A stretch of DNA of 64,000 bases from assembly GCA_965219445.1 (NCBI GenBank), contig CBDCNQ010000005.1, positions 384,001 through 448,000 of the forward strand, in the 5' to 3' direction. Position numbers and translations under genes: made by a program. This document shows, piece by piece, positions 46,770 to 63,057 of the stretch. This DNA is from Longimicrobiales bacterium. GTDB taxonomy: Bacteria; Gemmatimonadota; Gemmatimonadetes; Longimicrobiales; Gaopeijiaceae. Position 1 is the first letter of the stretch; every line of letters begins with the position of its first letter. The notes beneath the pieces were generated by a model. It was given only the letters and a program-made list of their open reading frames with translations, searched no databases and was not told where the DNA came from.

Positions 46770-47657
46770 CTAGAGTTCAAGCGCGGCCGGATCCCGGTCG
46801 GTCGGCCCTCGCAGGGAGGAACGATCTCCGCCGTCGCCCACGCCGAGCGAGCGGAGCAGGCGCGCGGCGGCCGGGCCGTTGGCGTGCATCCGGAACCCGG
46901 CGGCCACCTTGGCGCGGATGGCCCCCTCGCGGTAGTTGCCCGATGCGACCTCGATGTTGACGCGTCCGGTGCGCCCCTCGGAGTCGGTGTACTCGATCTG
47001 CGCATCCGGGTAGAGCACGCGGCCTTGGGCATCGATCGGCAAGCCGAGCTCCTCGGCCACGCGGTGCCGCTCGGCGTCGGCAGCCCGGCGGCCGTCTTTC
47101 GCCCGCGCGGACTCGCTCTTGCGTGCTACGGCGCTCTTGAACTCGCCGTCGAGACGCACACGGCGGACGGTGGCCCCCTGCTCGATCAGGCGTTGGTGCT
47201 CCTGGCGGCAGGCCCGATAGATGGCGGTGTCGTGCGCGGCTTCGGCGGGCCGGGTACGTGCGAACCCGATCTCCTGGCCGGGATCGATTCCCAGCTCGGC
47301 GGCCAGCTTCCGGGCCTCGGTCACGCCTTTCCGCGTGAGGGTCAGCACCTTGAACGGGTTGCCGTTGGGTCCAGTGGCTCGGGTTTCTTGGGCGAGCCCT
47401 TCGCGTATCCAGGCGTTCACGGCCCGCCGCGTGGTGTAGGGATGGCCGCCGAAGTGAGCCTCGGCGAGATCGCGGTACGAGACGGCGCCGTAGATGCCGA
47501 TGTCGGCGAGCGCCCCCCGGCACCGTTCTCTAAAAGAGGTGGACCCGCGGTCCCGGCTCGCGTCGTATTCTCGGCGATGGCCGTCCCGCATGCGGTAGGT
47601 AGCGCGGCTTTGTGGCGCGGCGGGACGCGGGTCCGATGCGATCGTGCGGTCGAGCAT
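46770..47657 (-). CDS. wHTH plus PD-(D/E)XK-like protein (Replic_Relax/MOBC-like)
   Basis: N-terminal wHTH (SYRDLAE..F...LTRKG), AAHD, YPDAQIEY...NIEVASGNY. Confidence 0.55.
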   Translation of the reverse strand: MLDRTIASDPRPAAPQSRATYRMRDGHRREYDASRDRGSTSFRERCRGALADIGIYGAVSYRDLAEAHFGGHPYTTRRAVNAWIREGLAQETRATGPNGNPFKVLTLTRKGVTEARKLAAELGIDPGQEIGFARTRPAEAAHDTAIYRACRQEHQRLIEQGATVRRVRLDGEFKSAVARKSESARAKDGRRAADAERHRVAEELGLPIDAQGRVLYPDAQIEYTDSEGRTGRVNIEVASGNYREGAIRAKVAAGFRMHANGPAAARLLRSLGVGDGGDRSSLRGPTDRDPAALEL

Positions 47658-47680
47658 CTCCTTGGCTCCTCCCCCTCTCG

Positions 47681-48703
47681 TCAGCGGCGCGGACCGAAGC
47701 TCCGGGTCGGAACCGGGAGCTCCGGCCTTGCGGCGTGCTGCGGGTCGGGAGCGCGGGTGGCGGCCACCGGTGCCGACTCCCGTTCGGGCTCACGCTCGCG
47801 GCTCCGTACCAGCACGAAGTCGGAGATCTTCTGTGCGTCGGCCGCGGCGCGGCGGATCTCCCTCGGATCCTCCTCGAGGGCGGCGACCCACCCCTCGACA
47901 TAAGCGGCTCCGCGGCTCGGGTCGTGGCCGACCCCCACGCGCTCGCCGGTCATCATTGCGCTGATCTCGGCCCGGAGCTCCTCCTTCGCATAGTCGGGGG
48001 ACCCGAATCCGCCCTCGATCCCCTGGATGAGCGTCTCGCGGTTCATGCGCTCTGGATGGCCGGTGCTGTGCCCCAGCTCGTGGAGCGCCGTCTGGTAGTA
48101 GTGGTTGGCCGAGGGGAACTGCACGCGCTCAGGGAGCACGATCTCGTCGCGGTTCAGGTTGTAGAACGCGCGGTCGCCGGCCATGTGACGGACGGGGACC
48201 CCGCTGTCCGCGAGGACCCTCTCGGCGTGCTGGTGCGCCTTCCAGAGCGGCTCGGCGGTGGGAGTGGGTCGAGCCGGGAGCCCGTCCGCCTGCTCGGCGT
48301 TGAAGACGGTGTACTGCCGGACGACAGGCGCGCGCATCCGCTCGTAGCGGTAGATGCGCTTGCCTTCGTTGTCCCTGACGGGCCGGCCGCGCTCGTCGTT
48401 GACGGCGATCTTCCGGTGGTCCTGGAACGAGAGGATGCGGGTGCCCTGCTCGCCCTTGCGGACCTGTCCGCCTTGGACCTGAGTCTGGCGGTAGGTACCC
48501 CAGCGCACGTCCGCGTAGCCGCGCGCCTGCTGGACGGCGGCGAGGTGCAGGCTGTTCCCGCCCGAGTAGGAGCGTCCGGTATCGACGTTGGCGGGAAGCA
48601 CGCGCTCGCCCGGCCCCCAGGGCTTCTGCCAGGGCGCGGTGCCCTGGCGGATCTGCTCGATGATCGCATCGGCGAACTGGCGGTGATATTCGTCGTGTTT
48701 CAT
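47681..48703 (-). CDS. ardC: ArdC-family ssDNA-binding antirestriction protein
   Basis: GTAPWQKPW, YSGGN, WGTYRQ...VRKGE, VFNAEQ, LHELGHSTGHPER, YAKEELRAEI. Confidence 0.9.
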   Translation of the reverse strand: MKHDEYHRQFADAIIEQIRQGTAPWQKPWGPGERVLPANVDTGRSYSGGNSLHLAAVQQARGYADVRWGTYRQTQVQGGQVRKGEQGTRILSFQDHRKIAVNDERGRPVRDNEGKRIYRYERMRAPVVRQYTVFNAEQADGLPARPTPTAEPLWKAHQHAERVLADSGVPVRHMAGDRAFYNLNRDEIVLPERVQFPSANHYYQTALHELGHSTGHPERMNRETLIQGIEGGFGSPDYAKEELRAEISAMMTGERVGVGHDPSRGAAYVEGWVAALEEDPREIRRAAADAQKISDFVLVRSREREPERESAPVAATRAPDPQHAARPELPVPTRSFGPRR

Positions 48704-48900
48704 AACTCTTCCTCCTCGGGGCCGTGCGGATCCTCCGAGGCGTCTCGGATCTCGTCCTCGGTGCCCACGTCCTCGGGGAAGAGGCCGTACTGCTCGGCCA
48801 GCGATGCCGGCACCTCGAGGGCCTCACCGCCGTCGCGCGAGAGCTCGCGGTCGAAGTCGTCGAGCGTCTCGACGCGGACGATCTTCTCGTCGCTTTCCAT
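48700..48900 (-). CDS. Small acidic hypothetical protein
   Basis: AGGAG RBS; D/E-rich 66 aa; overlaps the ardC start. Confidence 0.55.
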   Translation of the reverse strand: MESDEKIVRVETLDDFDRELSRDGGEALEVPASLAEQYGLFPEDVGTEDEIRDASEDPHGPEEEEL

Positions 48901-48904
48901 GGCC

Positions 48905-49888
48905 TCACTCCTTTTCTGTTTGTTCTTCATCGTCCTTCCTCCATATCGTCTCCGTGAGCCAGCGATTGGCGGCCGCCTCGTAGCCCCGGACTCGGAGCGC
49001 TTCCTCGACGAACCGCCGCCCCCCTCGCCGGGTCATGTGGACGACGAGCGAGATGCCGTCGACCACGCCCCTGCAGGTGACCTCCCAGGGGAGCGCCCCT
49101 CCGGCCTGCATGGCGCAACTGGCCAGGCGCGATAGCGCGGAGCTGGCGTTGTTCGCGTGGACGGTGGTGAGCGATCCGCCGTGGCCGGTGTTCAGCGCCT
49201 GCAGCAGATCGGCGGCCTCGCCGCCCCTGACCTCGCCGACGACGATGTGGTCGGGCCGGTGGCGGAGAGCGTGGCGGACCAGGTCGCGGATCGACACGGG
49301 CGCCTCGGAACCAACGGTTCCCGCCTCGAAGCGGAGGCAGTTCGCGCGCTCGATCCGGAGCTCGAGCGTGTCCTCGATGGCGACGATCCGCTCCTCCTCT
49401 GGGAGCAGCTCGATCAGGGCGTTGAGGAGTGTGGTCTTGCCCGAGCCGGTGCCTCCGGAGACCAAGATGTTCCGCCGCGAAGTGAGAGTGTCGCGGGCGA
49501 CGAGGAACACCTTTTCCGGCAGGGCGCCCTGCCGCACGAGGTCTTCGGCTGAGAACGCGCGGCCCCCGAACCGGCGGATGGTCATGGCCACGTGGGGGCT
49601 CGCGGGCGGCGTGCATATGGCGACGCGGGAGCCGTCGTCGAGCCGCGCGTCCAGGACGGGCCGCGCGGCCGGATCGAGCCCGAGCGGCCGCGCGATGTGG
49701 ATGGCCGCCCGGTGGAGCGCGGCGGCGGTGCGCTCGGGCGCTTCGATGGGCTCGAGCTCTCCGCCGCGCTCGACCCAGACGTTGCCGGGGCCGTTGATCA
49801 TCAGCTCGGAGACCTCCGGATCTTCGAGCACGGCCTCGAGTCCGGGCAGGAACGGCTTCAGGTGCCCGATCCCGCTCGCGCGCTTCAT
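48905..49888 (-). CDS. CpaF/TadA (VirB11-like) ATPase
   Basis: DPEVSELMING, LDARLDDGSRV, GGTGSGKTT, IEDTLEL, LRHRPD.IVVGEVRG, NTGH.G..TTVHAN; ATG 49888 overlaps the T4CP stop. Confidence 0.9.
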   Translation of the reverse strand: MKRASGIGHLKPFLPGLEAVLEDPEVSELMINGPGNVWVERGGELEPIEAPERTAAALHRAAIHIARPLGLDPAARPVLDARLDDGSRVAICTPPASPHVAMTIRRFGGRAFSAEDLVRQGALPEKVFLVARDTLTSRRNILVSGGTGSGKTTLLNALIELLPEEERIVAIEDTLELRIERANCLRFEAGTVGSEAPVSIRDLVRHALRHRPDHIVVGEVRGGEAADLLQALNTGHGGSLTTVHANNASSALSRLASCAMQAGGALPWEVTCRGVVDGISLVVHMTRRGGRRFVEEALRVRGYEAAANRWLTETIWRKDDEEQTEKE

Positions 49889-51930
49889 AGCCGGCCCTCC
49901 TCGCGGAGCCGCCAGTAGCCCACGTCCCTCGGCAGGTAGTGGGGCTTCAGATAGACGCGCCGGGCCGGCAGGGACTTCGTGCCGTCGTAGGGCAGGCAGA
50001 TCGCCTGATAGTTGGCGAGGAGGCTGAAGTCCCGGGGCGTGAAGACCGGCTCCCGGGCCTGCCGGAACGACTTGCTCGCGCCGATCGTGCCCCGCCCGCC
50101 TCCGGCACGTCCCGAGAGCAGCGAGAACTCCGGCCTGCCCGTCGTCTCGGTGAACGTGTAGGAAGGCTGCGTCTTCATGACGCTGCCGCACATCTCCGAG
50201 GCGATCCTGGCCGAGGACTCGTCGCTCAAGGACAGGAAGATCCGGGTGCGGAGCGTCTGGACCAGTGTGCGCCAGGCCTCCGTGCCGGACAGCACGGAGC
50301 GGAGCGAGGAGATCGACTGCGTGGCCACGATCGGGATGCAGCGGCACTGCCGCGTCATCGCGAACGCCTTCTCGTCGCCCGAGGGGTCGTCCTGGCCCAC
50401 GGTGGCGAACGCCTGGTACTCGTCGCAGATGAACACGGCGGGCCGGAGGTAGCGTCCGGGCCGGCGGGCGGCCTCGGCGGGCCGCCGGAGGAGCGCCTGC
50501 ATCCAGGCGTTCTTGAGCAGCACGCCGATGGCGCGGCCGAGCGCCGGGTTCGCGCCCGCGGGCATGTTGAGGGCGAGGACCCGGCCCTCTTCGATCAGCT
50601 GGGCGAGCGGCGGCAGCCGGCGACGGAGCCCCGGCATGGGCCGGACGGCCTCGGGGTCCTCGTCCGGCGCATCGTTACCTATATGTATAGATGGGGACTC
50701 ATCCGATTCCGGAGGCGGCGGACAGAAGACTCCGGCCACGCCGGGCTGATCGAACAGCGAGAGGAAGACGGAGATGCCCTCGACGATCGAGGTGCGGAGC
50801 TTGGCATCGAGCGCCATCCAATCGTTCAGGTACCAGCGCTCGATCGCCTCCACCTGGTCCCTGAGTTCGCTGCCTGCGCCGCTCTCGCCTTCCTCGGTCT
50901 CGAACGGGATCTCAAGCTCGGCGAGCCGATCCCGGAGGACCGGGTCGAGCCGGCACGTCACCGTGTCCTCACCGGAGGTATATATCCAGACCCAGTCATT
51001 CAGCGCTTCCGGATGGCCGATCATGTCGTCGTGGGAGATGACGACGCGCGCCGGGCACGCCTCAGCCACCAGGTCCTGGGCCTCGCGGATTCTCTCGGCG
51101 AATAGTTCCGCGTCGATCGTGCAGCGGTAGACATCCTGCAGCGTGACCCAGCCCCCCGGCAGGAGCCGGTACAGTTCGATGATCCAGCGCACGAGATTCG
51201 TATAGGCTTGCTGCCAGAACGGTTCGCGGCTCTTGCCGAAGAGCTGGTTGATCAGGGATGAGACGCTGTAGGCGAGCGAGTAGGTGTCGAGCAGCGGATC
51301 GTCGAGCGGGTTCCACTGCCAGGACCCGTCCAGCCCGATTTCCAGGTAGTCGTCCGCGCGGCCGGCCTCCTCGAGGATCCCCCGCACGCTGTGGCAGAAG
51401 TCGCCCTTGACCTCGAGCACCAAGGCGCTGGCCCGTCGTGCGGGCCGGTCGGCCTGCCACGAGAGGAGCTGCTGGGCGAACGGATACATGCAGGCCGAGG
51501 TCTTGCCGGAGCCGACGGCGCCGACGATCAGGATGCCGGTGTAGAGCCCCGTCTCTGGAACGACGAGCCAGGAGGGCCGCTCGCTCTCGCGCGGAACGGT
51601 CGGGTGGTGGAGCTCGCCGACCACGAGCGAGGGCGCCTCGTCCTCGGGCGACACGGGCCAAGCAGGCAGCTTGCCCCGGCCGCCGCCCCTCGCCCGCGGC
51701 TGGAGCCAGACTCTCCAGACCGAGAGGCCTAAGCTCCCGGCGAGCACCACGGCGACGGCGGGCGCCGCGTAGTACCAGACGCGGATCACCGTGTGGAAGT
51801 CCGGATCGTGGTAGGCGATCAAGTCCAGCACGGGGTTGCCGCCGCTGGCGGGAAACGGCGCCCACAAGGCGTGGGCGATCGCGGCCGCCGAAGCGAGGCC
51901 CACGAGTACGAGCGTCGCCGGCCTCAGCAT
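49885..51930 (-). CDS. Type IV coupling protein (TraD/VirD4-like)
   Basis: Two N-terminal TMs, Walker A GAVGSGKT, LEVKGD, WNPL, EPFW, Walker B FICDEYQ, ATQS. Confidence 0.85.
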   Translation of the reverse strand: MLRPATLVLVGLASAAAIAHALWAPFPASGGNPVLDLIAYHDPDFHTVIRVWYYAAPAVAVVLAGSLGLSVWRVWLQPRARGGGRGKLPAWPVSPEDEAPSLVVGELHHPTVPRESERPSWLVVPETGLYTGILIVGAVGSGKTSACMYPFAQQLLSWQADRPARRASALVLEVKGDFCHSVRGILEEAGRADDYLEIGLDGSWQWNPLDDPLLDTYSLAYSVSSLINQLFGKSREPFWQQAYTNLVRWIIELYRLLPGGWVTLQDVYRCTIDAELFAERIREAQDLVAEACPARVVISHDDMIGHPEALNDWVWIYTSGEDTVTCRLDPVLRDRLAELEIPFETEEGESGAGSELRDQVEAIERWYLNDWMALDAKLRTSIVEGISVFLSLFDQPGVAGVFCPPPPESDESPSIHIGNDAPDEDPEAVRPMPGLRRRLPPLAQLIEEGRVLALNMPAGANPALGRAIGVLLKNAWMQALLRRPAEAARRPGRYLRPAVFICDEYQAFATVGQDDPSGDEKAFAMTRQCRCIPIVATQSISSLRSVLSGTEAWRTLVQTLRTRIFLSLSDESSARIASEMCGSVMKTQPSYTFTETTGRPEFSLLSGRAGGGRGTIGASKSFRQAREPVFTPRDFSLLANYQAICLPYDGTKSLPARRVYLKPHYLPRDVGYWRLREEGRL

Positions 51931-52116
51931 CGCTCTGACAACCTTCCCGTAGGGCAGCCATGTTGGGAATAGCCATCTCGTCCAGCTAAGTCCCATAACG
52001 CATATAACTGACTTGTTTATATTGACTTATCACGATGCATAAGGATCTCTCCTGTCCCATAGCGATCCGCTTCGACCCCTTGCATCCGCTAATCTGTGGT
52101 GGATATATTGGTATGT

Positions 52117-53313
52117 ATGACACTCCCCACACGACCCCCGCAACGCAAGCCGCGCAGACGGCATCCCAACAACGCCCTGACGCCTGCCTTCGTGCGCAAC
52201 GTGAGCCAGGCCGGACGCTATTGTGACGGCCAGGGCCTCTATCTCGATGTGCGGCCCTCGGGCAGCCGGGGCTGGATCCAGCGCCTCACGATCCGCGGCC
52301 GCCGAACCGAGCTCGGGCTCGGCGGATTCCCCCTGGTCTCGCTGAAGGAAGCCCGAGAGAAGGCGTTCGCCAACCGGAAGCTCGCCCGCGAGCGAGGCGA
52401 TCCCCTGTCGGAGAAGCGGCGGGTCGAGTCGACGCCCACCTTCGCGGACGCGACCCGGCAGGTCTGGAACCAGCTGCGGCCGGGCTGGCGCTCCCCCCAG
52501 CATGCGCAGCTCTGGCTGAGCAGCCTGGAGCGCTACGCTGTTCCTCGCATCGGGAAGATGCCAATTTCGGAGGTGACGAGCGCCGACGTGATCGGGATTC
52601 TCGCTCCGATCTGGCACGACGTGCCGCCCACCGCCCGGAAGTTGCGCCAGCGCATCCGCGCGGTCATGGAGTGGGCGGTGGCGATGGGTCTCAGGCCCGA
52701 CAACCCGTGCGACCGGATCGGCCCGGTGCTCGGTTCGCAGGGGGGCGTCGTTCGACACATGCGGGCGTTGCCGCACCGCGAGGTGGCGTCCGCGATCGAG
52801 ACGGTGCGGGCGTCGAACGCGCGGCCGGTCGTGAAGCTGGCGTTCGAGTTTCTGGTGCTGACGGCGGTGCGCTCCGGCGAGGTCCGCGGGGCGGCGTGGG
52901 CGGAGATCGAGCGGGACGCGGGCGTGTGGACCATCCCGGCGATGCGCACGAAGGGGAACCGCGAGCACCGGGTGCCGCTGTGCGGGCGTGCTTTGCAGAT
53001 CCTCGAGGAAGCGCGGGTGCTCGGTCGCGGCAGCCCGCTCGTGTTTCCGGGCGTGCGCGGAAAGCCATTCGCGAGCACGGCGCTGTCGGAACTGCTCGGG
53101 GAGTTGAAGATCGCGGCTGTGCCGCACGGGTTCCGGTCGAGCTTTCGGGACTGGGCAGCCGAGGAAACGGATCATCCTCGGGAGGTGGCCGAGGCTGCGC
53201 TGGCGCATAAGGTCCGCAACCAGATCGAGGCGGCGTACCGGCGCACGGACCTGTTCGAGCGGCGGCGTCGGTTGATGGACGATTGGGCGCGTTACCTCGC
53301 TGGCGAGGGGTGA
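52117..53313 (+). CDS. int: P4-like tyrosine integrase
   Basis: YCDGQGLYL..GLGGFP.VSL, RSGEVR, HGFRSSFRDW, LAH, AYRR; AT-rich att-like sequence upstream. Confidence 0.95.
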   Translation: MTLPTRPPQRKPRRRHPNNALTPAFVRNVSQAGRYCDGQGLYLDVRPSGSRGWIQRLTIRGRRTELGLGGFPLVSLKEAREKAFANRKLARERGDPLSEKRRVESTPTFADATRQVWNQLRPGWRSPQHAQLWLSSLERYAVPRIGKMPISEVTSADVIGILAPIWHDVPPTARKLRQRIRAVMEWAVAMGLRPDNPCDRIGPVLGSQGGVVRHMRALPHREVASAIETVRASNARPVVKLAFEFLVLTAVRSGEVRGAAWAEIERDAGVWTIPAMRTKGNREHRVPLCGRALQILEEARVLGRGSPLVFPGVRGKPFASTALSELLGELKIAAVPHGFRSSFRDWAAEETDHPREVAEAALAHKVRNQIEAAYRRTDLFERRRRLMDDWARYLAGEG

Positions 53314-53364: not shown

Positions 53365-53555
53365 GTCATGAGCCAGCCTACCCTTTGGGGCCACGCTTCG
53401 CGGGTCCCCGGCAGGGGCTGGCGGGGGGCTGTGCCCCCTCTGACCCCCCCAACGGCAACGGCACATCATGGACGCTGGACCGGGCGGGGGGCTCGTCCCC
53501 CCTCCGTCTCGCCGGCCCGTCCTGATGGCTGATCGCCGCACCGTCGCCGCCGGCC
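53365..53555 (+). other. Putative oriT region (copy 3) with mobC 5' stub
   Basis: Matches 28655-28765; followed by ATGGCTGATCGCCGCACCGTC (MADRRTV, the mobC start). Confidence 0.55.
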
Positions 53556-53574: not shown

Positions 53575-55074
53575 TCAGCGGCTGGGACCATGATCCCGCT
53601 CTCGCCCACGGTGGCGCATCAGCTCCAGCGCCCGCGCAACGTCTCGGCGAGCGTCCTGTAGTCCCGGGCCAAGTATGTCGCTTGCCCGCTTAGCTGCGCG
53701 ACCTGCCGCTCCAAGGCTTCGACCTGCCTCCGCAAGGTCTCGACCTGCGCGGCGTGCTGCTTCTGCGCCTGCTCGTACTGCGCGGACAACGTCCGCAAAG
53801 CCTTCGTCAACTGCTGTTCTAACGCGGTCATAGAGCTCCTTCACTCGTTCGACAGCTTCACGGCCGGCCGAGTGTCCACGGTCCAGGGCGGATAGGCGAG
53901 CGCGCCGGCCGGCAGCACCACGAACCGCTCCCCCTCGATCTCCCGAAGCGTGATTCCCCAGGTGGTCGCCTCGAGCCGCTCCAGGGTCTGGCGTGCCTCC
54001 CCGATATCCAGGTCGAGGGCGGCGGCCGTCTCGATCCGGGCCTGGATGCGCGTCGACAGCCAGTGCAGCGTCGCCCAGCTCCCGCCGCAGATGCCGAGCC
54101 AGAGGCTCAGGCCGACTACCAGGGGCCGGAGCCAGGCCTTGAGCAGGAGCGCGCGCATCCGCCCGGTCGCCACCGCCGTATCGGCTTCGATGGTACGCAG
54201 CGCGTTGTTCGCAACACGCTGCGAGTTCGCGCCGAGCCGCTCGAGCTCGCTCGCGGTCAATTCCTCGATCGCCTGGCGTTCGCTCTCCAGCCGTCTGCGC
54301 AATCGCTCGGTCAAGTCGTTCGCGTTTGAAGTCATGTGCGTATAGCTCTCCTTTCAGACGCCACCGGTCCCCGGTCTCGGGGTCCAGCGCCGTGATGTAG
54401 TCCTTGCCCTGGCGCGGCACCTCCAGGCCCGCCTCCCGCAGGGCGGCGACGATATCGGCCCTATTCCGTACCGTGCCGTGCTCGACACGCTGGAGCAGGT
54501 AGTCGCGGATCAGGTCGCGGGGGGCGGGCTCGAGCGCGAGGCCGGCACGCAGGTGCGCCGCCTCGACGTAGGCGCGGTGACCGGGGTGCTGCACCCGAGC
54601 CAGCGCCGGGTCATCCGGCCGGCTCCAGCCGTGTTCGGCGTTGAAGGCGTCGCGGAGCGGGTCGAATGTCTTCTGCCAGCCCGGCGGCGCGATGTTGAGG
54701 CTCCGGCCGGTCTCGAGGTCGCACCGCGCGGCGAGGACATGCACGTGAACGCCGCCGTCGCGCTCCCGATGCACCACGGCCGCCCAGGCGTAGCGGTCGG
54801 GCTCGAGCCCCGCCCAGGCCGTCTGTTCAAAGGCATCGATGACCGCGCCGATCTGCGCGTCGGTCGGAGTGTCGTCCGGTGCCCAGGCAATCACGCCCGA
54901 CGTGTACTTGTGCTCGAACGCCAGCGCGTCGGCCACCGCGGCGACGTGATGGGGATCCCCCCGGAGGACCTCCACGCCCTCGCGCAGTTGCCCCGTCGCG
55001 TCCCGCGCCCCGAGCAGGTAGTCGGCCGCCGCCCGGGCCGAGCCGGTTCCGCGAGCCAGGAATTTAATGTGCAT
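53575..55074 (-). CDS. mobA: ColE1/MbeA-like relaxase
   Basis: KFLARG.GS..AADYLL, VLRGDP, KYTSGVI, HRERDGGVHVH, DLETGRSL. Confidence 0.88.
   Translation of the reverse strand: MHIKFLARGTGSARAAADYLLGARDATGQLREGVEVLRGDPHHVAAVADALAFEHKYTSGVIAWAPDDTPTDAQIGAVIDAFEQTAWAGLEPDRYAWAAVVHRERDGGVHVHVLAARCDLETGRSLNIAPPGWQKTFDPLRDAFNAEHGWSRPDDPALARVQHPGHRAYVEAAHLRAGLALEPAPRDLIRDYLLQRVEHGTVRNRADIVAALREAGLEVPRQGKDYITALDPETGDRWRLKGELYAHDFKRERLDRAIAQTAGERTPGDRGIDRERARAARRELAACCEQRAAYHRSRYGGGDRADARAPAQGLAPAPGSRPEPLARHLRRELGDAALAVDAHPGPDRDGRRPRPGYRGGTPDPGAARGDHLGNHASGDRGGAVRGAAGRRARLSALDRGHSAGREAVERVKELYDRVRTAVDEGFADVVRAVRAGAEAARRAGRDLAEAGRSLGAAGRAAKRASDILGPGLQDARRDVARALELMRHRGRERDHGPSR
53619..53831 (-). CDS. 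mobD: MbeD/MobD-like protein nested in relaxase gene
   Basis: MTALEQQLTKALRTL coiled coil; AAGGAG RBS; position as in ColE1. Confidence 0.7.
   Translation of the reverse strand: MTALEQQLTKALRTLSAQYEQAQKQHAAQVETLRRQVEALERQVAQLSGQATYLARDYRTLAETLRGRWS
53841..54335 (-). CDS. mobB: MbeB/MobB-like protein nested in relaxase gene
   Basis: AAGGAG RBS; coiled coil, single TM, FVVLP.G motif; homologous start at 10257. Confidence 0.7.
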   Translation of the reverse strand: MTSNANDLTERLRRRLESERQAIEELTASELERLGANSQRVANNALRTIEADTAVATGRMRALLLKAWLRPLVVGLSLWLGICGGSWATLHWLSTRIQARIETAAALDLDIGEARQTLERLEATTWGITLREIEGERFVVLPAGALAYPPWTVDTRPAVKLSNE

Positions 55075-55469: not shown

Positions 55470-55535
55470 CCGGGGGATCGAAGGGGGCGGAGCACCCCTC
55501 GCCAGCCCTAATGTTGCACATTGGGTAGGCTGGCT
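55470..55535 (-). other. Putative oriT region (copy 4, upstream of intact mob operon)
   Basis: AATGT-GCA-ACATT palindrome then AGGGCTGGCG; position upstream of mobC. Confidence 0.6.
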
Positions 55536-55706
55536 CTCCCGCCGTAGCGGCCAAACTCGCCCGCCGACGGTCGGAACACTGGGCCGTCAAAATCGCCATA
55601 CCCGTATATTGAGGAGCCCGCCTTATGCGGTGTCAACAACGGGCAAAAAGGCGATGTCCCAGGTGTTCCAGCGACGTACCAGAAGCGGACCCGGCTCCGC
55701 CAGCGG
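55523..55706 (+). repeat. ~200-bp res-like repeat, copy B
   Basis: Contains CCGTCAAAATCGCCATACCCGTATATTGAGG; near-identical to copy A. Confidence 0.85.
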
Positions 55707-55986: not shown

Positions 55987-56975
55987 ATGACGATGGTCCA
56001 GCCCTTCCAGGCGAGTCTCTTCGCCGAGGACTTCCTGCGCGAAGCGATCGAGGGGCTTCCCGAATGGCAGGACTTAGTCGAAGCAGCGCTCGGGGATCTT
56101 GAGGCTTCGTTGCGTGGCCTGTTTGATCGCTTCCCGACGGAGCTGTCGCCCAACGAGAGCCAGACCGAGGATGATCTGATCTGGCCGGTGTTGGCGCGAC
56201 TCGGATGGACATCCAGCCTCAGGCAGCAGAACCTCTCGGCGCGCGGCCGCGAAGACGTGCCGGACGGCTTGCTGTTCGCGGACGGCGCCTCGAAGGACCG
56301 GGCAAACCGCTTCGCCGAGGAGTGGAGACGCTACGAGGACGGCCTCGCCGTCGTGGAGTCGAAACGATGGTCTCGACCCCTCGACCGGCGCTCGGGGCGG
56401 CGGGGCGAGGAGTCCGCGCCCTCTACGCAGATGCTGCGCTACCTCCGCCGCATCGACGACCTGACCACCGGCAAGCTCCGGTGGGGCATTCTGACGAACG
56501 GCGCCCGCTGGCGCCTCTATTACGCCGGCGCGCGCTCGGTCTCCGAGCAGTTCTTCGAGATCGATCTCGCGGCGGTTCTGGATGTTCCGGGCCTCGGCCG
56601 GGAAGCCATCCCGACCGAGGCCCGGCGACACTGGCTGAAGGTGTTCTGGCTGGTGTTCCGGCGAGATGCCTTCCTGCCCGACGCGGCGGACGAACGAACC
56701 TTTCACCAGCGCGCGATCGAGGAAGGCCGCTTCCATCAGGAACGGGTCGCCAGCAGCCTGTCCGTCCTGGTCTTCGAGCAAGTCTTCCCGGACTTTGTTC
56801 GGGCACTGGCCAAGGCAGATCCCGAAGCCCCGTTGCCCGAAGTGCGCGACGCAGCGTTGGTCTTGCTCTACAGGCTTCTCTTCGTGCTTTACGCCGAAGA
56901 CCGCGATCTCCTGCCGGTACGCGACAGCCGCTACGACGAGACTACGCACTCCGGGAGCGGGTTCGTGGCGACATC
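55987..56975 (+). pseudogene. Type IIG restriction-modification enzyme, N-terminal fragment
   Basis: NESQTEDDLI.PVL..LGW, PDGLLF, VESKRW, WGILTNGARWRLY, LLYRLLFVLYAEDRDLLP; cut before the MTase motifs. Confidence 0.8.
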
Positions 56976-57270
56976 GGCCGCCTCCCGGGCCGAGCCGGTT
57001 CCGCGGGCCAAGAACTTAATGTGCATCGGCGTCGGGGCGGACGACGGGGGCCAGTGTCCTAAGCGGCCGCTCGATGGCGACCAGGTGGGCGACGATCTCG
57101 ACGGTCTCGGCGTTCGCTTTGAAGGTATTGGCCCAGCGGGCGATCTGGTTCAGGTTCGCCCCGATCCGCGCCAGCTCGCGGGTCCGCTCTCGCTCCACCT
57201 CGGCGTGCGCCACGGTCCAGGGGCGCACCCGGCCAACCGACCGGCGCACCAGATCCGACAGCGTCAACCC
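56973..57270 (-). pseudogene. mobC 3' part plus first 18 codons of relaxase
   Basis: Near-identical to 55020-55250; MHIKFLARGTGSAREAAD from 57026. Confidence 0.85.
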
Positions 57271-57616
57271 TGAGCCGGTTGTCCCGTCGCTCTCTTCCCG
57301 GCCAGTCGGCGGCCTTCCCCTAGTTAAAGGAGGGTCGGCTTCCGCATCACGCGTTTCGGAGCCTGCTCGGCGTTCACTCACGTTCCGGCCTGCATGGTCG
57401 CTGAACCGCCTACCGACTTAGCTCCTCCCTTGGCCGTCTCCGCCGTTTCCGGCTTCGTGCCCGTTTAGGGCGTCGCATATCGGTCGCAGCCCTTTTGCCA
57501 AAGTGCTTCAACCCATGTCGTTACCTCCATGAATCGCTCTGGCTGCTACTAGCGGAAGCGACAGTCGCTGGGTGGGATTCGCACCCACTAGGAAAACGCG
57601 CCTTTCCACGGCGCAC
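57270..57616 (-). mobile_element. Group II intron 5' fragment (domain I, no RT)
   Basis: Starts GTGCGCCGTGGAAAGGCGCG..GGGTGCGAATCCCACCC..GTAGCAGCC..GGAGGTAACGA; later GGAACGTGAGTGAACGCCGAGCAGGCTCCGAAA..GCCGACCC..GGGGAAGGC. Confidence 0.75.
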
Positions 57617-57719
57617 TTCAACATTGCGATGGAGTGGACGCCCCCCACACCGGGCACCAATGTGCGCCGGATGAGGAGAACGCACACGGGGTGCGTTCGG
57701 GACACGAGAGGGGGGATCC

Positions 57720-58766
57720 ATGGGCAAGGTGGTCAGCATCATCGGCATCGATATCTCGAAGAGGTACTTCCAACTGCACGGGGCCACGGAGGGCGGTGAG
57801 CCCGTGCTGCGCAGGAAGCTGACGCGCTCGAAGCTGCTCGAGTTCCTCGCCAAGCAGCCTGTTTGCCGGGTCGTGATGGAAGTGTGCGCGAGCGCCCACC
57901 ATTGGGGGCGGATGATCCGGGAGCTCGGCCACGAAGTCCGCCTGATTCCCCCGGTGTATGTGAAGCCTTATGTGAAGAGGCAGAAGAACGATGCCAACGA
58001 CGCCGGGGCGATCGTCGAGGCGGCCCAGCGGCCGACGATGCGGTTCGTGGCCGTGAAGACCGAGGAGGAGCAGGCACACTCGGTGGTGTTCCGGGCCCGG
58101 GAGCTGCTGGTGCACCAGCGGACGCAGACGATCAATGCGCTACGGGGTCACCTCGCGGAGTTCGGACTCGTCGTTCCGCTCGGGATCCACAACGTCGGGA
58201 GGCTGGAAGAGGCGTACGCGGAGTGTGAGGAGTTCTTCCCGGTGCTGGTACCCCCCGCGATACGCCTCCTCATCGAGCGGATCCACGACCTGGATGCGGA
58301 GATCGATGAGATGGACCGGGAGATCCGTCGGATGGTGAGGGAAGACGAGGCGCTCCGGCGCCTGATGACGATCCCGGGGGTGGGAGAGCTCACGGCGATG
58401 GCGGTCCACACCTTTGCGCCACCGATGGAGAGCTTCCGCACGGGGCGCGACTTCGGGGCATGGGTAGGGCTCACGCCGCGTGAATCGTCGACGGGTGGCC
58501 GCCAGCGGCTGGGGCGGATCACGAAGATGGGTCAGCGCGACATCAGGAGGCTCCTGTACCTGGGGGCGACGTCGGTCATCTCGAGTGCCATCCGGCGGGG
58601 GGAGGTCACCGATCCCTGGCTTCGGCGGATGCTGGACGAGAAGCCGAGGAAGGTGGTTGCGGTGGCACTGGCCAACAGGATGGCGCGCATCATCTGGGCC
58701 GTGACGGTGAAGGCGGAGAACTACAGGGCACGGGGAGTGACGAAGGCCGTTTCTGCAGCAGCGTAG
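57720..58766 (+). CDS. IS110-family DEDD recombinase/transposase
   Basis: IGIDISK, MEVC, KNDANDA, IPGVG, GLTPRESSTGG, VAVALANRMAR. Confidence 0.95.
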   Translation: MGKVVSIIGIDISKRYFQLHGATEGGEPVLRRKLTRSKLLEFLAKQPVCRVVMEVCASAHHWGRMIRELGHEVRLIPPVYVKPYVKRQKNDANDAGAIVEAAQRPTMRFVAVKTEEEQAHSVVFRARELLVHQRTQTINALRGHLAEFGLVVPLGIHNVGRLEEAYAECEEFFPVLVPPAIRLLIERIHDLDAEIDEMDREIRRMVREDEALRRLMTIPGVGELTAMAVHTFAPPMESFRTGRDFGAWVGLTPRESSTGGRQRLGRITKMGQRDIRRLLYLGATSVISSAIRRGEVTDPWLRRMLDEKPRKVVAVALANRMARIIWAVTVKAENYRARGVTKAVSAAA

Positions 58767-58939
58767 GGTTGCGAGTCAGATGAGTGGAGCAAACGAGCGT
58801 TGGCTAGACCCGAAACCCGGAGGAGGCGAGAGATGAGATCATCGGGGGTGACGGCTCGATCACCCCAATGGGCATGAGCTGGGAAGGTCCCAACTGGAGA
58901 GGGCAGGCAGGACGGCGGACAAGGTAGGGGCAAACGGTC

Positions 58940-59085
58940 GGCAAGACGGGGTCGGAAAAACCAGTAGCCTACGATGGGCCACCGAGCCCGCCATTGCGAT
59001 TCGGATCCGATCTCACGAACACCATACGGGCCCGCGGCCAGAAATGTGCCGCACCAAGAGGCCGCACATACGACCGTACCTGACC
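58940..59085 (+). ncRNA. Putative bridge/seek RNA of the IS1111 element
   Basis: Target-like guides AGCCTACG (58966) and CATTGCG (58992) flank a GGGC/GCCC hairpin; donor-like CCATACG (59022) and CACATACG (59065). RNA boundaries approximate. Confidence 0.75.
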
Positions 59086-59143
59086 TGACTGCCACCGACT
59101 TCGGTACGACGTCAGGCTTGCCAACCAGGGGGGCGTCCACATT

Positions 59144-59366
59144 CGTGGGCTGGCTCCCGTCCGCTAAGCCAACTCAGCCGCCGACGCTGGGAACCCTGGG
59201 CCGTCAAAATCTCCATACCCGTACATTGACGAGCCCGCCTTATGCGGTGTCAACAACGGGCAAAGAGGCGATGTCCCTGGAGTTCCAGCGACGTACCAGA
59301 GGCGGACCCGGCTCCGCCAGCGGACGCCCGATCTGCTCCCGGAGAGCCGGAGGAGAACCTCGATTC
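59144..59366 (+). repeat. ~200-bp res-like repeat, copy C (diverged)
   Basis: CCGTCAAAATCTCCATACCCGTACATTGACG; direct to copy B, inverted to copy A. Confidence 0.85.
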
Positions 59367-59487
59367 GCGGTGGGTCGAGGCACCGCTTATTCTGCACCAG
59401 TTCATCCACCGGCAGAAGAGGCGAGTAGCGCCACAGTTTGGCCCCTGGGATAGGATGAGTGAGCCCTATGGCCCCTTGCGAAATCCG

Positions 59488-62400
59488 ATGACTCGTCACC
59501 GCACCATCATCCGGCTGTCGGCGGTGCTAGCGGTTGTGGCCTTGGCCAAGGGGTGCGGGGACGGTGACAGCCCTACCGCGCCTCCAACGCCAGAGCCCGC
59601 CCGTCCGACGACGGTCACGGTAACCCCCGCCACGGCCGAGCTGACCGCATTGGGTGCAACCGTTCAGTTGAGGGCAGAGGTGCGTGACCAGAACGCCAGG
59701 GTGATGGCTGGGACCACCGTGACTTGGACGAGCAGCGCCAACTCAGTGGCGACGGTGAACGCGTCGGGTTTGGTGGTGGGGGTCGCCGAAGGGACGGCGA
59801 CGATCACGGCGAGTGCGGGAAGCGCACAGGGAACGGCAGAGATCATGGTCGGTCCCAACCGGGACGGGGCCGCGCTGATCGCGCTGTACGAAGCGACGGA
59901 TGGGCCAAACTGGGTCGATGCCGAAAACTGGCTGACCGACGCACCGCTCGGCGACTGGTACGGGGTGGACGCCGATGATTCCGGCCGAGTCGTCGGTCTG
60001 AGTCTCGGCCGCAACAACCTGACGGGCTCGATCCCACCCGAGCTTGGCAACCTCACGAGCCTTACGAGGCTATGGCTCCGCAGCAACAATCTGACGGGCT
60101 CGATTCCGACCGAGTTCGGCCGCCTTACTAGGCTGACGCACCTGTGGCTAGAACGTAACAACCTTTCGGGTCCGATCCCAGAAAGCTTTCTCCAGATCGA
60201 TGGTTTGACGCGGTTCCACTTCGAACGAAACGCGGATCTGTGCGCTCCGGGCACCTCAGATTTCGTGACTTGGCTGCAGGACATACCGGATGTTTCCCCA
60301 AGCCCCTACTGCAACGAGTCGGACATGGAGGTCCTCGAACTCGTCTACGAGACCTCCGGCGGGCCCAACTGGATAGAGTCCACCGGCTGGCTAGAGACGC
60401 CGGCACTGGAAGCATGGCATGGGGTGACGGCGAACTCTCTCGGTCAGGTAGTGGCCCTCGACTTAGCCCGCAACGGTTTGATGGGTCGGCTACCGGCCAA
60501 TCTTGGAAGCTTGGCTGACATGACGACACTGCGGGTCGGGGGCAACGCGCTCTCTGGACCGTTACCGCGTTCCCTGGCCCAGCTCTCGCTTGTCGAGTTC
60601 CACTACGCCGACACTCACCTGTGTGCCCCGGCGGTAGCATCTTTCCGGGTGTGGCTGAACGGCATTGCGTCGCTTGAGGGCACGGGTGTGGAATGTGCAC
60701 CCCCCTCTGACCGAGAGATCCTGGTAGCGCTGTACGAAGCGACGGATGGACGGAATTGGGCTATTGCCGACAACTGGTTGACCGTCGCGCCGCTCGAGGA
60801 CTGGTACGGAGTCTGGGCCGATGCCCGAGGCCGGGTCACAAGGCTGTCCCTTTCGGACAACGAGCTGGCTGGCCCAATTCCCGCTGAACTAGGTGACCTC
60901 GCAGCTCTGAATGGGTTGACGCTCAGCCACAACAACCTCTCGGGCCCAATCCCGCCCGAGCTTGGCAACCTGCCGATGCTCGCTGGACTCTTGCTCAGCT
61001 CCAACAACCTCGCGGGACCGATTCCGCCCGAGTTCGGCCGCCTTACTAGGCTGACGCACTTGTGGCTAGAACGTAACAACCTTTCGGGTCCGATCCCCCC
61101 CGAACTCGGCAGCCTCGCCGACCTGCTAGTCCTGAGTCTCGGGGAAAACGACCTCTCGGGTCCGATTCCGCCCGAACTCGGCAGCCTCGCCAACATGACG
61201 CGGCTGTATCTCGGCGATAACGACCTAACCGGCGAAATCCCACCCGGACTCGGTAACCTCGCCAGGCTGGAGCGCATGGATCTCTACGCTAACGACCTCT
61301 CGGGCCCGATCCCACGTGAACTCGGTAGCCTCACCAACCTTGAGAGTCTGCGTCTCGTCAACAACGACCTGACGGGTCCGGTGCCCCCTGAGTTCGGTGG
61401 AATGTCGAGCCTGCGACGGCTGTCCCTCACAAACAATTCTGGGATGTCGGGAGCGTTACCGGCCGGACTGACGGCTCTTAGGCTCGAGGCACTGCTGGCC
61501 GGGGGCACGGATCTTTGCGCACCCCCGGACCCTGGATTCCAAGCTTGGCTGGAAGGAGTCCACAGGCGCCGCGTAGCCGCCTGCGCTAACGGAGACCCGC
61601 CGATGGCGTACGTGACACAGGCGGTGCAGTCGCGGGAGTACCCGGTTCCGCTGGTTGCGGGCGAGAAGGCTCTACTGCGAGTCTTCGTTACGGCTGCGCG
61701 CCACACGACGGCCGGCATCCCCTCTGTCCGGGCACGGTTCTACCTGAACGGAACCGAGACGCATGTAGCGGACATCCCGGCCATGACGACGCCCATCCCG
61801 ACGGAGGTTCTCGAACACGATCTGTCGATATCTGCCAACGCCGAGATCCCAGGCGAAATCGTGCAGCCGGGCTTAGAGATGGTGATCGAGATCGACCTAG
61901 AGGGGGTGCTGGACCCCGGGGTCGGGGTGTCGAAGCGGATCCCAGAGACGGGCCGCCAGGTGGTTGAGGTGCGCGAGATGCCCGTGTTTGACCTCACAGT
62001 GATTCCGTTCCTATGGGGCCCAAAGCCGGATGCACTGGTTCTGGACGTAACCGAGGCCATGGCCGAAGACCCACACAACCACGAGTTACTTGCAATGACA
62101 CGGACCTTGCTTCCAGTCGAGGACCTCGTGCTCACTCGACATGAACCTGTGGTGACTTCGCACAACAATTCATTGGACCTGATCCGCGAAACAGAAGCGA
62201 TTCGAGTCCTCGAGGGCGGACGCGGTTACTACATGGGAACGATGACCGGAGAGTTCGCAGGAATTGATGGACTGGCCCTCCAGAACGGACGTTCGATTTT
62301 CTCCAAGACGGACCGTGGAGAGCGATCAGAGTTTGTGATCGCACACGAGCTGGGACACAACATGGGTCTCTACCACCCGCCGGGGTGCCGGGCGGGTCAT

Positions 62401-63057
62401 CTAGACTACTCCTTCCCCCACGAGAATGGACAGATAGGAGCTTGGGGATACGACTTCGATGCCCACCGTCTGGTTCCACCCACTGTAGGTGACCTGATGT
62501 CCTATTGCGGGCAGGGGTGGATCAGCGACTACCACTTCACCAACGCGCTTCGCTACCGGCTGTTCGACGAGGGGCCGCCGCTGGTGGCGGCAAAGTCCCT
62601 CCTCCTATGGGGCGGGATGGATGCGGAAGGCGACCCGTTCCTCAACCCTGCCTTCATCGTCGACGCCCCACCCGCGCTCCCCGATTCCACTGGTGGGCAC
62701 CGGATCACCGGACGGACCGCCAGCGGCAGTGAGCTCTTCGCCCTCGACTTCGCCATGCCCGAGGTGGTCGACGGCGACGGGAGCTCGTCCTTCGCCTTCG
62801 TCCTCCCGGCTCAGCCCGGCTGGGCCAGCAACCTGGCGACCCTCACGCTCTCAGGGCCCGGTGGGTCGGTTACGCTGGACAGCGACACGGACCTGCCCAT
62901 GACCATCCTGCTCGATCCGAGCACCGGACAGGTGAGGGGGATCCTGCAGGACTTGCCGCAGGCAGACGCAGCGGCCCTCGCCCCTCAAGCGGGTTTCGAC
63001 AGTCTCGATGTGCTCTTCAGTCGCGGGCTTCCCGATGCCGCGGCCTGGAGTCGGTGA
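59488..63057 (+). CDS. Lipoprotein with Ig-like (Big_2), plant-type LRR blocks and zinc metallopeptidase domain
   Basis: LAKGC lipobox; LxLxxNxLsGpIPpELGxL repeats with ALYEATDG.NW caps; HELGHNMGLYH and DLMSY Met-turn. The ORF-track start at 59242 lies in the res-like repeat. Confidence 0.88.
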   Translation: MTRHRTIIRLSAVLAVVALAKGCGDGDSPTAPPTPEPARPTTVTVTPATAELTALGATVQLRAEVRDQNARVMAGTTVTWTSSANSVATVNASGLVVGVAEGTATITASAGSAQGTAEIMVGPNRDGAALIALYEATDGPNWVDAENWLTDAPLGDWYGVDADDSGRVVGLSLGRNNLTGSIPPELGNLTSLTRLWLRSNNLTGSIPTEFGRLTRLTHLWLERNNLSGPIPESFLQIDGLTRFHFERNADLCAPGTSDFVTWLQDIPDVSPSPYCNESDMEVLELVYETSGGPNWIESTGWLETPALEAWHGVTANSLGQVVALDLARNGLMGRLPANLGSLADMTTLRVGGNALSGPLPRSLAQLSLVEFHYADTHLCAPAVASFRVWLNGIASLEGTGVECAPPSDREILVALYEATDGRNWAIADNWLTVAPLEDWYGVWADARGRVTRLSLSDNELAGPIPAELGDLAALNGLTLSHNNLSGPIPPELGNLPMLAGLLLSSNNLAGPIPPEFGRLTRLTHLWLERNNLSGPIPPELGSLADLLVLSLGENDLSGPIPPELGSLANMTRLYLGDNDLTGEIPPGLGNLARLERMDLYANDLSGPIPRELGSLTNLESLRLVNNDLTGPVPPEFGGMSSLRRLSLTNNSGMSGALPAGLTALRLEALLAGGTDLCAPPDPGFQAWLEGVHRRRVAACANGDPPMAYVTQAVQSREYPVPLVAGEKALLRVFVTAARHTTAGIPSVRARFYLNGTETHVADIPAMTTPIPTEVLEHDLSISANAEIPGEIVQPGLEMVIEIDLEGVLDPGVGVSKRIPETGRQVVEVREMPVFDLTVIPFLWGPKPDALVLDVTEAMAEDPHNHELLAMTRTLLPVEDLVLTRHEPVVTSHNNSLDLIRETEAIRVLEGGRGYYMGTMTGEFAGIDGLALQNGRSIFSKTDRGERSEFVIAHELGHNMGLYHPPGCRAGHLDYSFPHENGQIGAWGYDFDAHRLVPPTVGDLMSYCGQGWISDYHFTNALRYRLFDEGPPLVAAKSLLLWGGMDAEGDPFLNPAFIVDAPPALPDSTGGHRITGRTASGSELFALDFAMPEVVDGDGSSSFAFVLPAQPGWASNLATLTLSGPGGSVTLDSDTDLPMTILLDPSTGQVRGILQDLPQADAAALAPQAGFDSLDVLFSRGLPDAAAWSR

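Follow-up and report, generated by a model that had tools for sequence, protein, structure and literature searches.

An IS1111-type insertion sequence with a predicted guide RNA aimed at a likely ColE1-type origin of transfer

The IS1111 elements for which seekRNAs have been described, among them ISEc11, ISKpn4, ISPst6 and ISPa11 (Siddiquee et al., 2024, PMC11187229), encode a DEDD recombinase of ~340 aa. As presented in that paper, they have in common subterminal inverted repeats (sTIRs) of 11-13 bp with 7/3-nt extensions, a 3' non-coding region, an RNA in which the guide for the top strand comes first, insertion without target duplication, and natural reprogramming among close relatives. The element described here resembles them in each of these respects. 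The targets given there are a short linear site, attC ends, REP repeats and, for ISEc21, IS3 transposase genes. Here the target is a transfer origin, of which the main text of that paper makes no mention.

The element is also similar to IS621 and IS622 (Durrant et al., 2024, PMC11208160; Perry et al., 10.1101/2025.05.14.653916), for which a two-loop RNA with left and right target guides and donor guides is described; the donor guides of the present element are likely ones. The same two sources report a bridge RNA predicted in the right end of 93% of IS1111 elements. Relative to IS621 and IS622, however, the order of the guides is reversed here. In addition, IS621 and IS622 are described as having a shared, central core dinucleotide, whereas here the right dinucleotide varies and the left end supplies CG.

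Parts of other mobile elements already figure among the reported targets of IS1111/IS110 elements, namely attC, Tn21 repeats and IS3 genes (PMC11187229, PMC11208160). Like IS4321/IS5075, which occupy Tn21 inverted repeats, and the IS1111-attC group (PMC11208160, PMC11187229), the element studied here specifically parasitizes a conserved cis site of another mobile element. Unlike them, it targets a relaxase origin, which is struck at three positions and by at least two recombinase lineages. ISPpu10, as described (10.64898/2026.03.19.712850), is likewise an IS110-family element with a many-copy repeat as its target and a DNA stem-loop beside the guide-matched site, but its target is a host intergenic repeat; here it is an oriT, of which two different left-arm types are occupied. 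The oriT itself resembles those of ColE1 and other MOB_P5 (MOB_HEN) plasmids (PMC5703827, PMC3632715) in its location upstream of mobC, its inverted repeat beside CTGGCT and its association with an MbeA-like relaxase. It differs from the descriptions of those origins in being integrated, with ~48 copies per genome, many of them without mob genes. The relaxase has a motif of the H-x-H-x-H type and scores below the MbeA cut-off, unlike that of ColE1.

The element lies within a 64,000-nucleotide stretch of a Longimicrobiales genome (the window, to which coordinates refer unless stated otherwise). We regard it as a known machine, an ordinary IS1111 member, with a target class that is apparently unreported. 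No report of guides aimed at a transfer origin was found in the literature searched; supplements (target tables) and subscription papers could hold one. The locus would thus add to the natural targets of bridge/seek RNAs a class not reported in that literature, namely the cis site that confers transferability.

The element and its predicted RNA

The features of the insertion sequence (IS) are as follows.

57627..59143, + strand: IS1111-type insertion sequence, whole element (sTIRs with 7/3-nt extensions; homologs 91-97.5% identical; public contigs starting at 57627)
57634..57646, + strand: left sTIR, 13 bp; outside it the 7-nt left extension (57627-57633), first bases CG
57720..58766, + strand: DEDD recombinase/transposase, 348 aa, open frame (Pfam DEDD_Tnp_IS110 and Transposase_20)
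58767..59127, + strand: 3' non-coding region, predicted seek/bridge RNA (scaffold conserved across 35 aligned relatives)
58948..59013, + strand: predicted target-binding loop with outer stems, 5' guide, central hairpin and 3' guide (consensus fold)
58966..58973, + strand: predicted 5' guide, complement of the top strand right of the insertion point (covariation with right flank)
58992..58998, + strand: predicted 3' guide, five variable bases matching the left flank plus a near-invariant CG (covariation with left flank)
59022..59072, + strand: predicted donor guides, CCATACG (59022-28) and CACATACG (59065-72)
59118..59143, + strand: right end with -35-like hexamer (59118-23), right sTIR (59128-40) and 3-nt extension ATT

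The sTIRs at 57634-46 and 59128-40 are perfect over 13 bp. The recombinase gene looks intact: NCBIfam NF033542 matches at 315 bits (cut-off 140), the D/E/D-D and GLTP...STG motifs are present, and its length falls within the IS1111 range of 330-350 aa. Traits of IS1111 are evident in the DEDD and Transposase_20 domains, the 7/3-nt ends and the long 3' non-coding region, and in the insertion of all seven copies with this guide pair in the same register and orientation without target duplication.

The right extension of this copy is ATT, and the usual end of its relatives is ATA (80/86 ends; CACATA). With ATT, the match to the predicted donor guide is imperfect and the predicted -10 box is weaker; this copy, with its atypical right end, may for that reason be a poor mover. 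A promoter role of the -35-like hexamer is suggested by the account of IS1111 elements in PMC11187229. A resemblance between the IS right end and the left arm of the target hairpin was set aside, as it is common to elements with unrelated targets and coincides with this hexamer. We found no circle-junction contig among the public contigs of eight runs, which as contigs cannot show absence. Two RNA runs yielded low-depth contigs (shares <0.2), and from these contigs alone there was neither evidence of expression nor any RNA end.

The first-pass annotation of the window proposed that two short segments of the 3' region are target guides, and that these are programmed against sequence close to an oriT. 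The strings on which it relied are where it placed them: CATTGCG at 57622-28 and again at 58992-98, CATTCGTGGGCT at 59140-51, AGCCTACG at 58966-73 and CATTGGGTAGGCT at 55519-31. The GGGC/GCCC hairpin (58976-79/58986-89) and its enclosing stem (58948-56/59006-13) are also confirmed. To collect homologs for evaluating the guides, 201 genomes of the family were searched at the DNA level and all 314 with the scaffold pattern, and two scans of collections were added. The fetched loci (L numbers below) contained 184 scaffold matches, 102 after de-duplication, of which 90 could be parsed for guides and 12 could not.

Alignment of 35 relatives, each representing one guide set, shows a conserved scaffold in which the 58966-73 and 58992-98 segments are the variable parts. 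Covariation was evaluated over 40 guide sets by shuffling guides among sets, with each flank available in 36 and the first two bases of the 5' guide excluded. The 5' guide matches the right flank at a mean of 5.30/6 positions per guide set (best of 2000 shuffles, 3.90) with the register slid for data and shuffles alike, and at 3.15/6 with a fixed register. The 3' guide matches the left flank at a mean of 4.34/5 (best of 2000 shuffles, 2.13). The guide-target covariation that had been expected is thus present, far above the shuffles, and from this pattern in the sequences the two target guides appear to be real. The top-strand match precedes the bottom-strand match in the RNA, which is the IS1111 order. 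For the predicted donor guides, CACATACG equals the usual IS right end plus CG, and the donor-guide columns and element ends are nearly invariant in the clade, leaving no variation for covariation.

The predicted structure agrees in part. In the consensus fold of 35 sequences both guides are unpaired, in an internal loop flanked by a long stem and a short hairpin; the consensus stems are paired in 99.3% of cells (sliding controls ≤64%), with compensatory change in 2/17 pairs only. The single-sequence fold is not significant (z ~ -0.6) and sequesters the 5' guide. The placement of the guides in loops thus holds for the consensus, and fails for the 5' guide when the window's sequence is folded by itself.

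Further collections gave few relatives. The exact guide pattern had no match in JGI metagenomes, and the scaffold pattern occurred there at 10 loci, none with the window's guide pair. The plasmid collection contained no close relative, the best protein match being 59% and the non-coding region reaching at most 78-80% over part of its length.

The target repeat and its likely identity

To the left of the element lie an island integrase, mob genes and an unoccupied copy of the predicted target.

52096..53313, + strand: tyrosine integrase of the island (Pfam Phage_integrase, Arm-DNA-bind_3)
53371..53445, - strand: third empty copy of the oriT family, between the integrase and the end of mobA, followed by a remnant of a mobC start at 53525
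53575..55074, - strand: mobA, MbeA-like MOB_P relaxase (Pfam Relaxase; 47-63% to plasmid relaxases)
55064..55423, - strand: mobC, ribbon-helix-helix accessory protein (Pfam NikA-like and MobC)
55481..55537, + strand: intact empty oriT copy with GGGG-box hairpin (55481-99), long hairpin (55501-36), target (55519-31) and nic motif (55530-35)

The 12/13 match of the predicted target at 55519-55531 noted in the first-pass annotation is correct, the single difference being C to G. No perfect 13/13 match exists in this genome. Twelve sites differ from the 13-mer by one base; eight are in the oriT repeat and four outside it. Four of the eight are identical to the rebuilt empty site of the window's IS (the occupied 13-mer), and all four are unoccupied. 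The occupied site is also one base off the predicted 13-mer (A to G, a possible rU:dG wobble).

Beside the window's occupied copy, 48 further copies of the repeat were identified genome-wide by a rule that requires the motif, so that conservation of its core is partly built in. These ~48 copies lie mostly on C5 in the source genome, which has 42 integrase-like blast hits. A 45-nt piece of the empty oriT folds as DNA with z -3.2. For the relaxase, with its motif of the H-x-H-x-H type, there are 3475 plasmid matches, most of them classed as mobilizable; its best NCBIfam model is relax_MbeA_E1 (E 6.7e-27, 95 bits, below the cut-off of 500). Upstream of mobC, on the opposite strand, the repeat accompanies 13/17 mobC hits, the remaining four being the occupied copy of the window, one copy that is degenerate and two pieces in inverted orientation. 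ColE1 and three of four plasmid relatives have the same order of GGGG-box, hairpin and CTGGCT upstream of mobC. We take the cut bond to be GG/CT within CTGGCT. The exact octamer CTGGCTTA, reported to contain the ColE1 nic (PMC5703827), is present in 14/48 copies, and the window's two copies match it at 6/8 positions. By these comparisons the repeat looks like a ColE1/MOB_P5-type origin of transfer, from which a nick position can be predicted. Position 55519 had previously been annotated as an oriT/res junction. The oriT half of this description is likely right, given the mobC-adjacent, ColE1-type layout; for res, neither a resolvase gene nor res-like evidence was seen.

It is very unlikely that the repeat is instead a REP-like or att-like sequence rather than a working origin, in which case the element would be engaged in ordinary repeat targeting of the kind known for ISPa11 or ISPpu10. 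No mobC trace is found at 28/48 copies, 20/48 are near an integrase 3' end and, as noted, the window's copies share 6/8 of the octamer, all of which would fit such a repeat. Against this, the location upstream of mobC, the exact ColE1 octamer in 14 copies and the occurrence of the same layout on replicating plasmids and ColE1 argue for an origin. Many of the 28 copies without a mobC trace may be dead. That many origins lack mob genes and abut integrase 3' ends suggests that the islands are mobilized in trans. The halves of the repeat are shuffled: two left types are found with each of 6/7 multi-member right-half types, the crossovers lying between -11 and +2 relative to the predicted nick. This would fit nic-specific recombination, and homologous recombination within the shared block would give the same result.

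The IS itself is inserted in another copy of the repeat, of which the following parts remain.

56974..57246, - strand: remnants of mobC (C-terminal part) and the first mobA codons of the occupied origin (Pfam MobC, blastn, tblastn)
57273..57616, - strand: 5' fragment of a group II intron (Rfam RF02003, 60.5 bits, cut-off 49; EBS1 loop 57321-28)
57617..57626, + strand: left remnant of the occupied oriT hairpin, with loop and left target CATTG (57622-26)
59144..59324, + strand: right half of the occupied oriT, with right target (59144-51), nic motif CTGGCT (59150-55) and a conserved 180-bp flank

The right half aligns with 55526-55706 at 88%, and the 10 nt of the left remnant are identical in the empty oriT copies at C2:357222, C5:966745 and C5:1026441. 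The DNA to the right of 55519 has its homolog in the right flank of the IS, which thus already occupies a second copy of the oriT. This second copy and the intron fragment on the left flank were both missed by the earlier annotation. The occupied origin has lost its left arm and most of its mob sequence. Elsewhere in the source genome, at C1:186870-186886 (+), is an oriT copy in which the left target is replaced by six bases typical of an IS right end and followed by a perfect right target, possibly the scar of a former insertion.

The boundaries of the insertion bear on the CG dinucleotide, which had been read as a core present at both junctions. CG does occur at both, but it is not a duplicated core: by the 7/3-nt end rule and the lack of target duplication, the element begins with the left CG, and the right CG belongs to the target. 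It had also been stated that the empty copy at 55519 differs exactly in the core dinucleotide and could thereby be resistant. The difference does lie there, but it is of one base (C to G) rather than of the whole dinucleotide. Resistance of GG sites is contradicted by L036, inserted in CATTG|GGTAGGCT, which is the sequence at 55519; the left arm of its hairpin shows that the G is native. It is undercut as well by the four CG-type sites that lie empty in this genome. The dinucleotide that follows the right end at 65 on-target insertions of the clade is CG in 53, CA in five, GG in four and another in three. The CA cases are programmed in the guide, and the four GG cases are mismatches where the guide implies CG. 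These are natural evidence for tolerance of a mismatch at the supposed core by an IS1111. CG may still be weakly preferred, as it is present at 5/6 right junctions seen versus 10/48 empty sites (four CG to three GG among those with a matching left half). Because left ends were searched with a pattern that contained CG and permitted one mismatch, the occurrence of CG at 79/79 left junctions is partly built in; the variable right dinucleotide is not.

Insertions at the repeat by this and other elements

All seven copies with the window's guide pair (six genomes, four genera; 91-97.5% identical in DNA) abut the ColE1/MOB_P5-type oriT repeat, 10 nt 5' of the predicted nick and in one orientation. 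The repeat is on both sides of the element in the window, L036, L037 and L034; it is on the left, the sole side visible, in L194, and in L033 the two halves derive from two subtypes. In L035 it is on the right only and the left flank is unrelated, which may reflect a rearrangement or, by analogy, a half-match event. Events of the latter kind have been described for IS621. The window and L037 share the intron context and may represent one event. Among copies with other guides and at least one flank, 1/79 is at the repeat (L040, 5'-truncated); six records have no flank. The flanks of aligned homologs thus bear out the proposal that the guides are programmed for oriT-proximal sequence. Chance matching of short words, for which one could point to the four one-mismatch 13-mers outside the repeat, can be ruled out, both by covariation far beyond the shuffles and by the contrast of 7/7 with 1/79. 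In contigs of three further public studies the IS right end is joined to the motif with differing right halves; the guide is absent from these contigs.

Three more guide pairs strike the same origin. One inserts at +14, 3' of the nick (2/2 copies at the origin), and two insert at -1, on the opposite strand and one base 5' of the nick (1/1 and 3/7 copies, the second being loose). Identity of their recombinases to that of the window is 62-63% for the +14 pair and, in both cases in broken pieces, 51-62% and 47-67% for the -1 pairs. In a quick tree the +14 group is separated from the window's group by a branch of 0.5; as this tree contains one spurious long row and leaves out the -1 guide sets, independence of the lineages rests mainly on pairwise identity. 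The recombinases of L182 and L195 are 87-94% identical to that of the window, with guides aimed at a group II intron. The clade therefore offers a natural reprogramming series, in which near-identical recombinases are aimed at the origin, a group II intron or another IS.

Other targets were also observed. The guides of L182, L195, L123 and L032 match the group II intron family to which the window's intron fragment belongs, either in domain I or in the reverse transcriptase gene. In L033, L049 and L194 a second IS1111 subgroup is nested in the donor-loop region of this element's non-coding RNA gene, with guides matching it, and another guide pair is aimed at the left end of other IS1111 elements. 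Guide pairs in L138, L139, L152, L159, L160, L164 and L169 are directed to a conserved site that lies ~100 bases past integrase 3' ends; an att site and another kind of origin are candidates for its identity. An IS1111 element of 62% identity and with other guides is also present in the source genome in three copies, all broken (C2:226169-227436, 609680-610941 and 694698-695235), one with an inverted non-coding region and one with tandem repeats of the right-end junction.

The group II intron fragment comprises the 5' ~345 bases of the intron. It interrupts the hairpin loop of the oriT that the IS occupies, at a distance of 10 bases from the IS. It has the GUGCG 5' end, the domain I fold and an EBS1 complementary to the 5' exon. 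The EBS1 loop pairs with the last six exon bases with one G:U in the window and none in L002 and L204. At the same place, L037 has a whole intron with a reverse transcriptase gene. There are 16 distinct intron starts in the fetched loci. Five follow the oriT hairpin loop, three of these without an IS at -10, and in all readable cases (3/5) EBS1 is complementary to the oriT-loop exon. Introns at the oriT loop are those of the window, L037, L028, L182 and L204. The remaining starts have different EBS1 loops that match different exons. No report of an oriT-inserted group II intron was found in the main texts of the openly available literature searched.

These insertions raise the idea that RNA-programmed parasites have a niche of their own at transfer origins. 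The RNA guides of one group II intron and of two or more IS1111 lineages would have been separately tuned onto the same ColE1-type origin. The elements would strike the hairpin and nick-flanking bases while these are opened by the relaxosome or, during conjugation, single-stranded, and would insert as the DNA moves between cells. We put this forward tentatively, as a possibility that we think somewhat unlikely to hold.

Consequences for the transfer of islands

We consider it probable that this is an IS1111-type element with a predicted RNA aimed 10 bases before the likely nick of an island-borne ColE1-type origin with ~48 copies, that the origin is likely a landing pad and that the occupied origin is probably disabled. 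By analogy with the IS1111 papers, the IS ends would join into a circle, forming a promoter, and the 3' region would yield an RNA bound by the recombinase. On the right side of the insertion point the 5' guide would bind the top strand, and on the left side the 3' guide would bind the bottom strand; together the two would select the site and orientation of insertion. One guide pair could cover several origin subtypes if rU:dG wobble accepts TAGG or TGGG and if, as the insertions suggest, the first base after the insertion point may be C or G. For such an element the origin would be a conserved, many-copy and dispensable site that is always on a mobile island. We propose that spread between genera would occur via islands moved by other, intact nearby origins, for example that at 55534, from which the direction of transfer would lead towards the IS.

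The first-pass annotation suggested that the IS hunts transfer origins in order to hitch-hike. In that case the occupied origin would still work, or be restored by excision, and the IS would travel at the trailing end of the strand being transferred. In favour of this, the IS leaves intact the 10 nt that precede the predicted nick, and the high identity of same-guide copies across four genera implies horizontal spread; guide sets with other targets, however, likewise cross genera. Insertion places the hairpin and GGGG-box 1.5 kb from the predicted nick, a position from which the origin has probably been stopped, and the insertions of a sister guide set lie 1 nt from the nick itself. An apparently whole mobC-mobA pair adjoins one occupied origin (L048), which would suit a hitch-hiker, but not the other 13 of the 14, a proportion about the same as for empty copies (6/48). 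Restoration by excision is disfavoured by the account in PMC11187229, where formation of the IS1111 circle left no regenerated empty site, and by the description of IS621 as copying out. We judge true hitch-hiking unlikely.

Very little probability attaches to a role in conflict or defence, in which the IS and the intron would be kept because they immobilize mobilizable islands, an effect that would benefit the host or competing elements. The three insertion positions bracket the nick, and most guide pairs of the clade appear by eye to be aimed at other mobile elements (introns, IS ends and integrase-adjacent sites). However, occupancy is low (one occupied versus 48 empty copies in this genome), the elements are scattered and often broken with no sign of domestication, and selfish use of harmless sites would give the same pattern. 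The use of origins as landing pads remains our preferred reading. The locus bears on the question of why RNA-guided insertion sequences choose their targets, be it for a free ride, a harmless landing pad or sabotage.

Several neighbouring genes of the window were also identified. A conjugation-type module on the - strand (46770-52000) encodes a TrwB/TraD-like coupling protein, an ArdC-like protein, a VirB11-like ATPase frame and a 295-aa protein without a Pfam match that could be a relaxase; the module is a possible helper for the mob islands. Between the empty and occupied origins, the 5' part of a gene at 55987-56940 (+), without Pfam or NCBIfam match and by eye encoding a restriction-modification protein, is cut off by the mobA remnant. 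Directly after the island, 59242-63057 (+) encodes a large protein with Ig-like, leucine-rich repeat and metallopeptidase-like parts.
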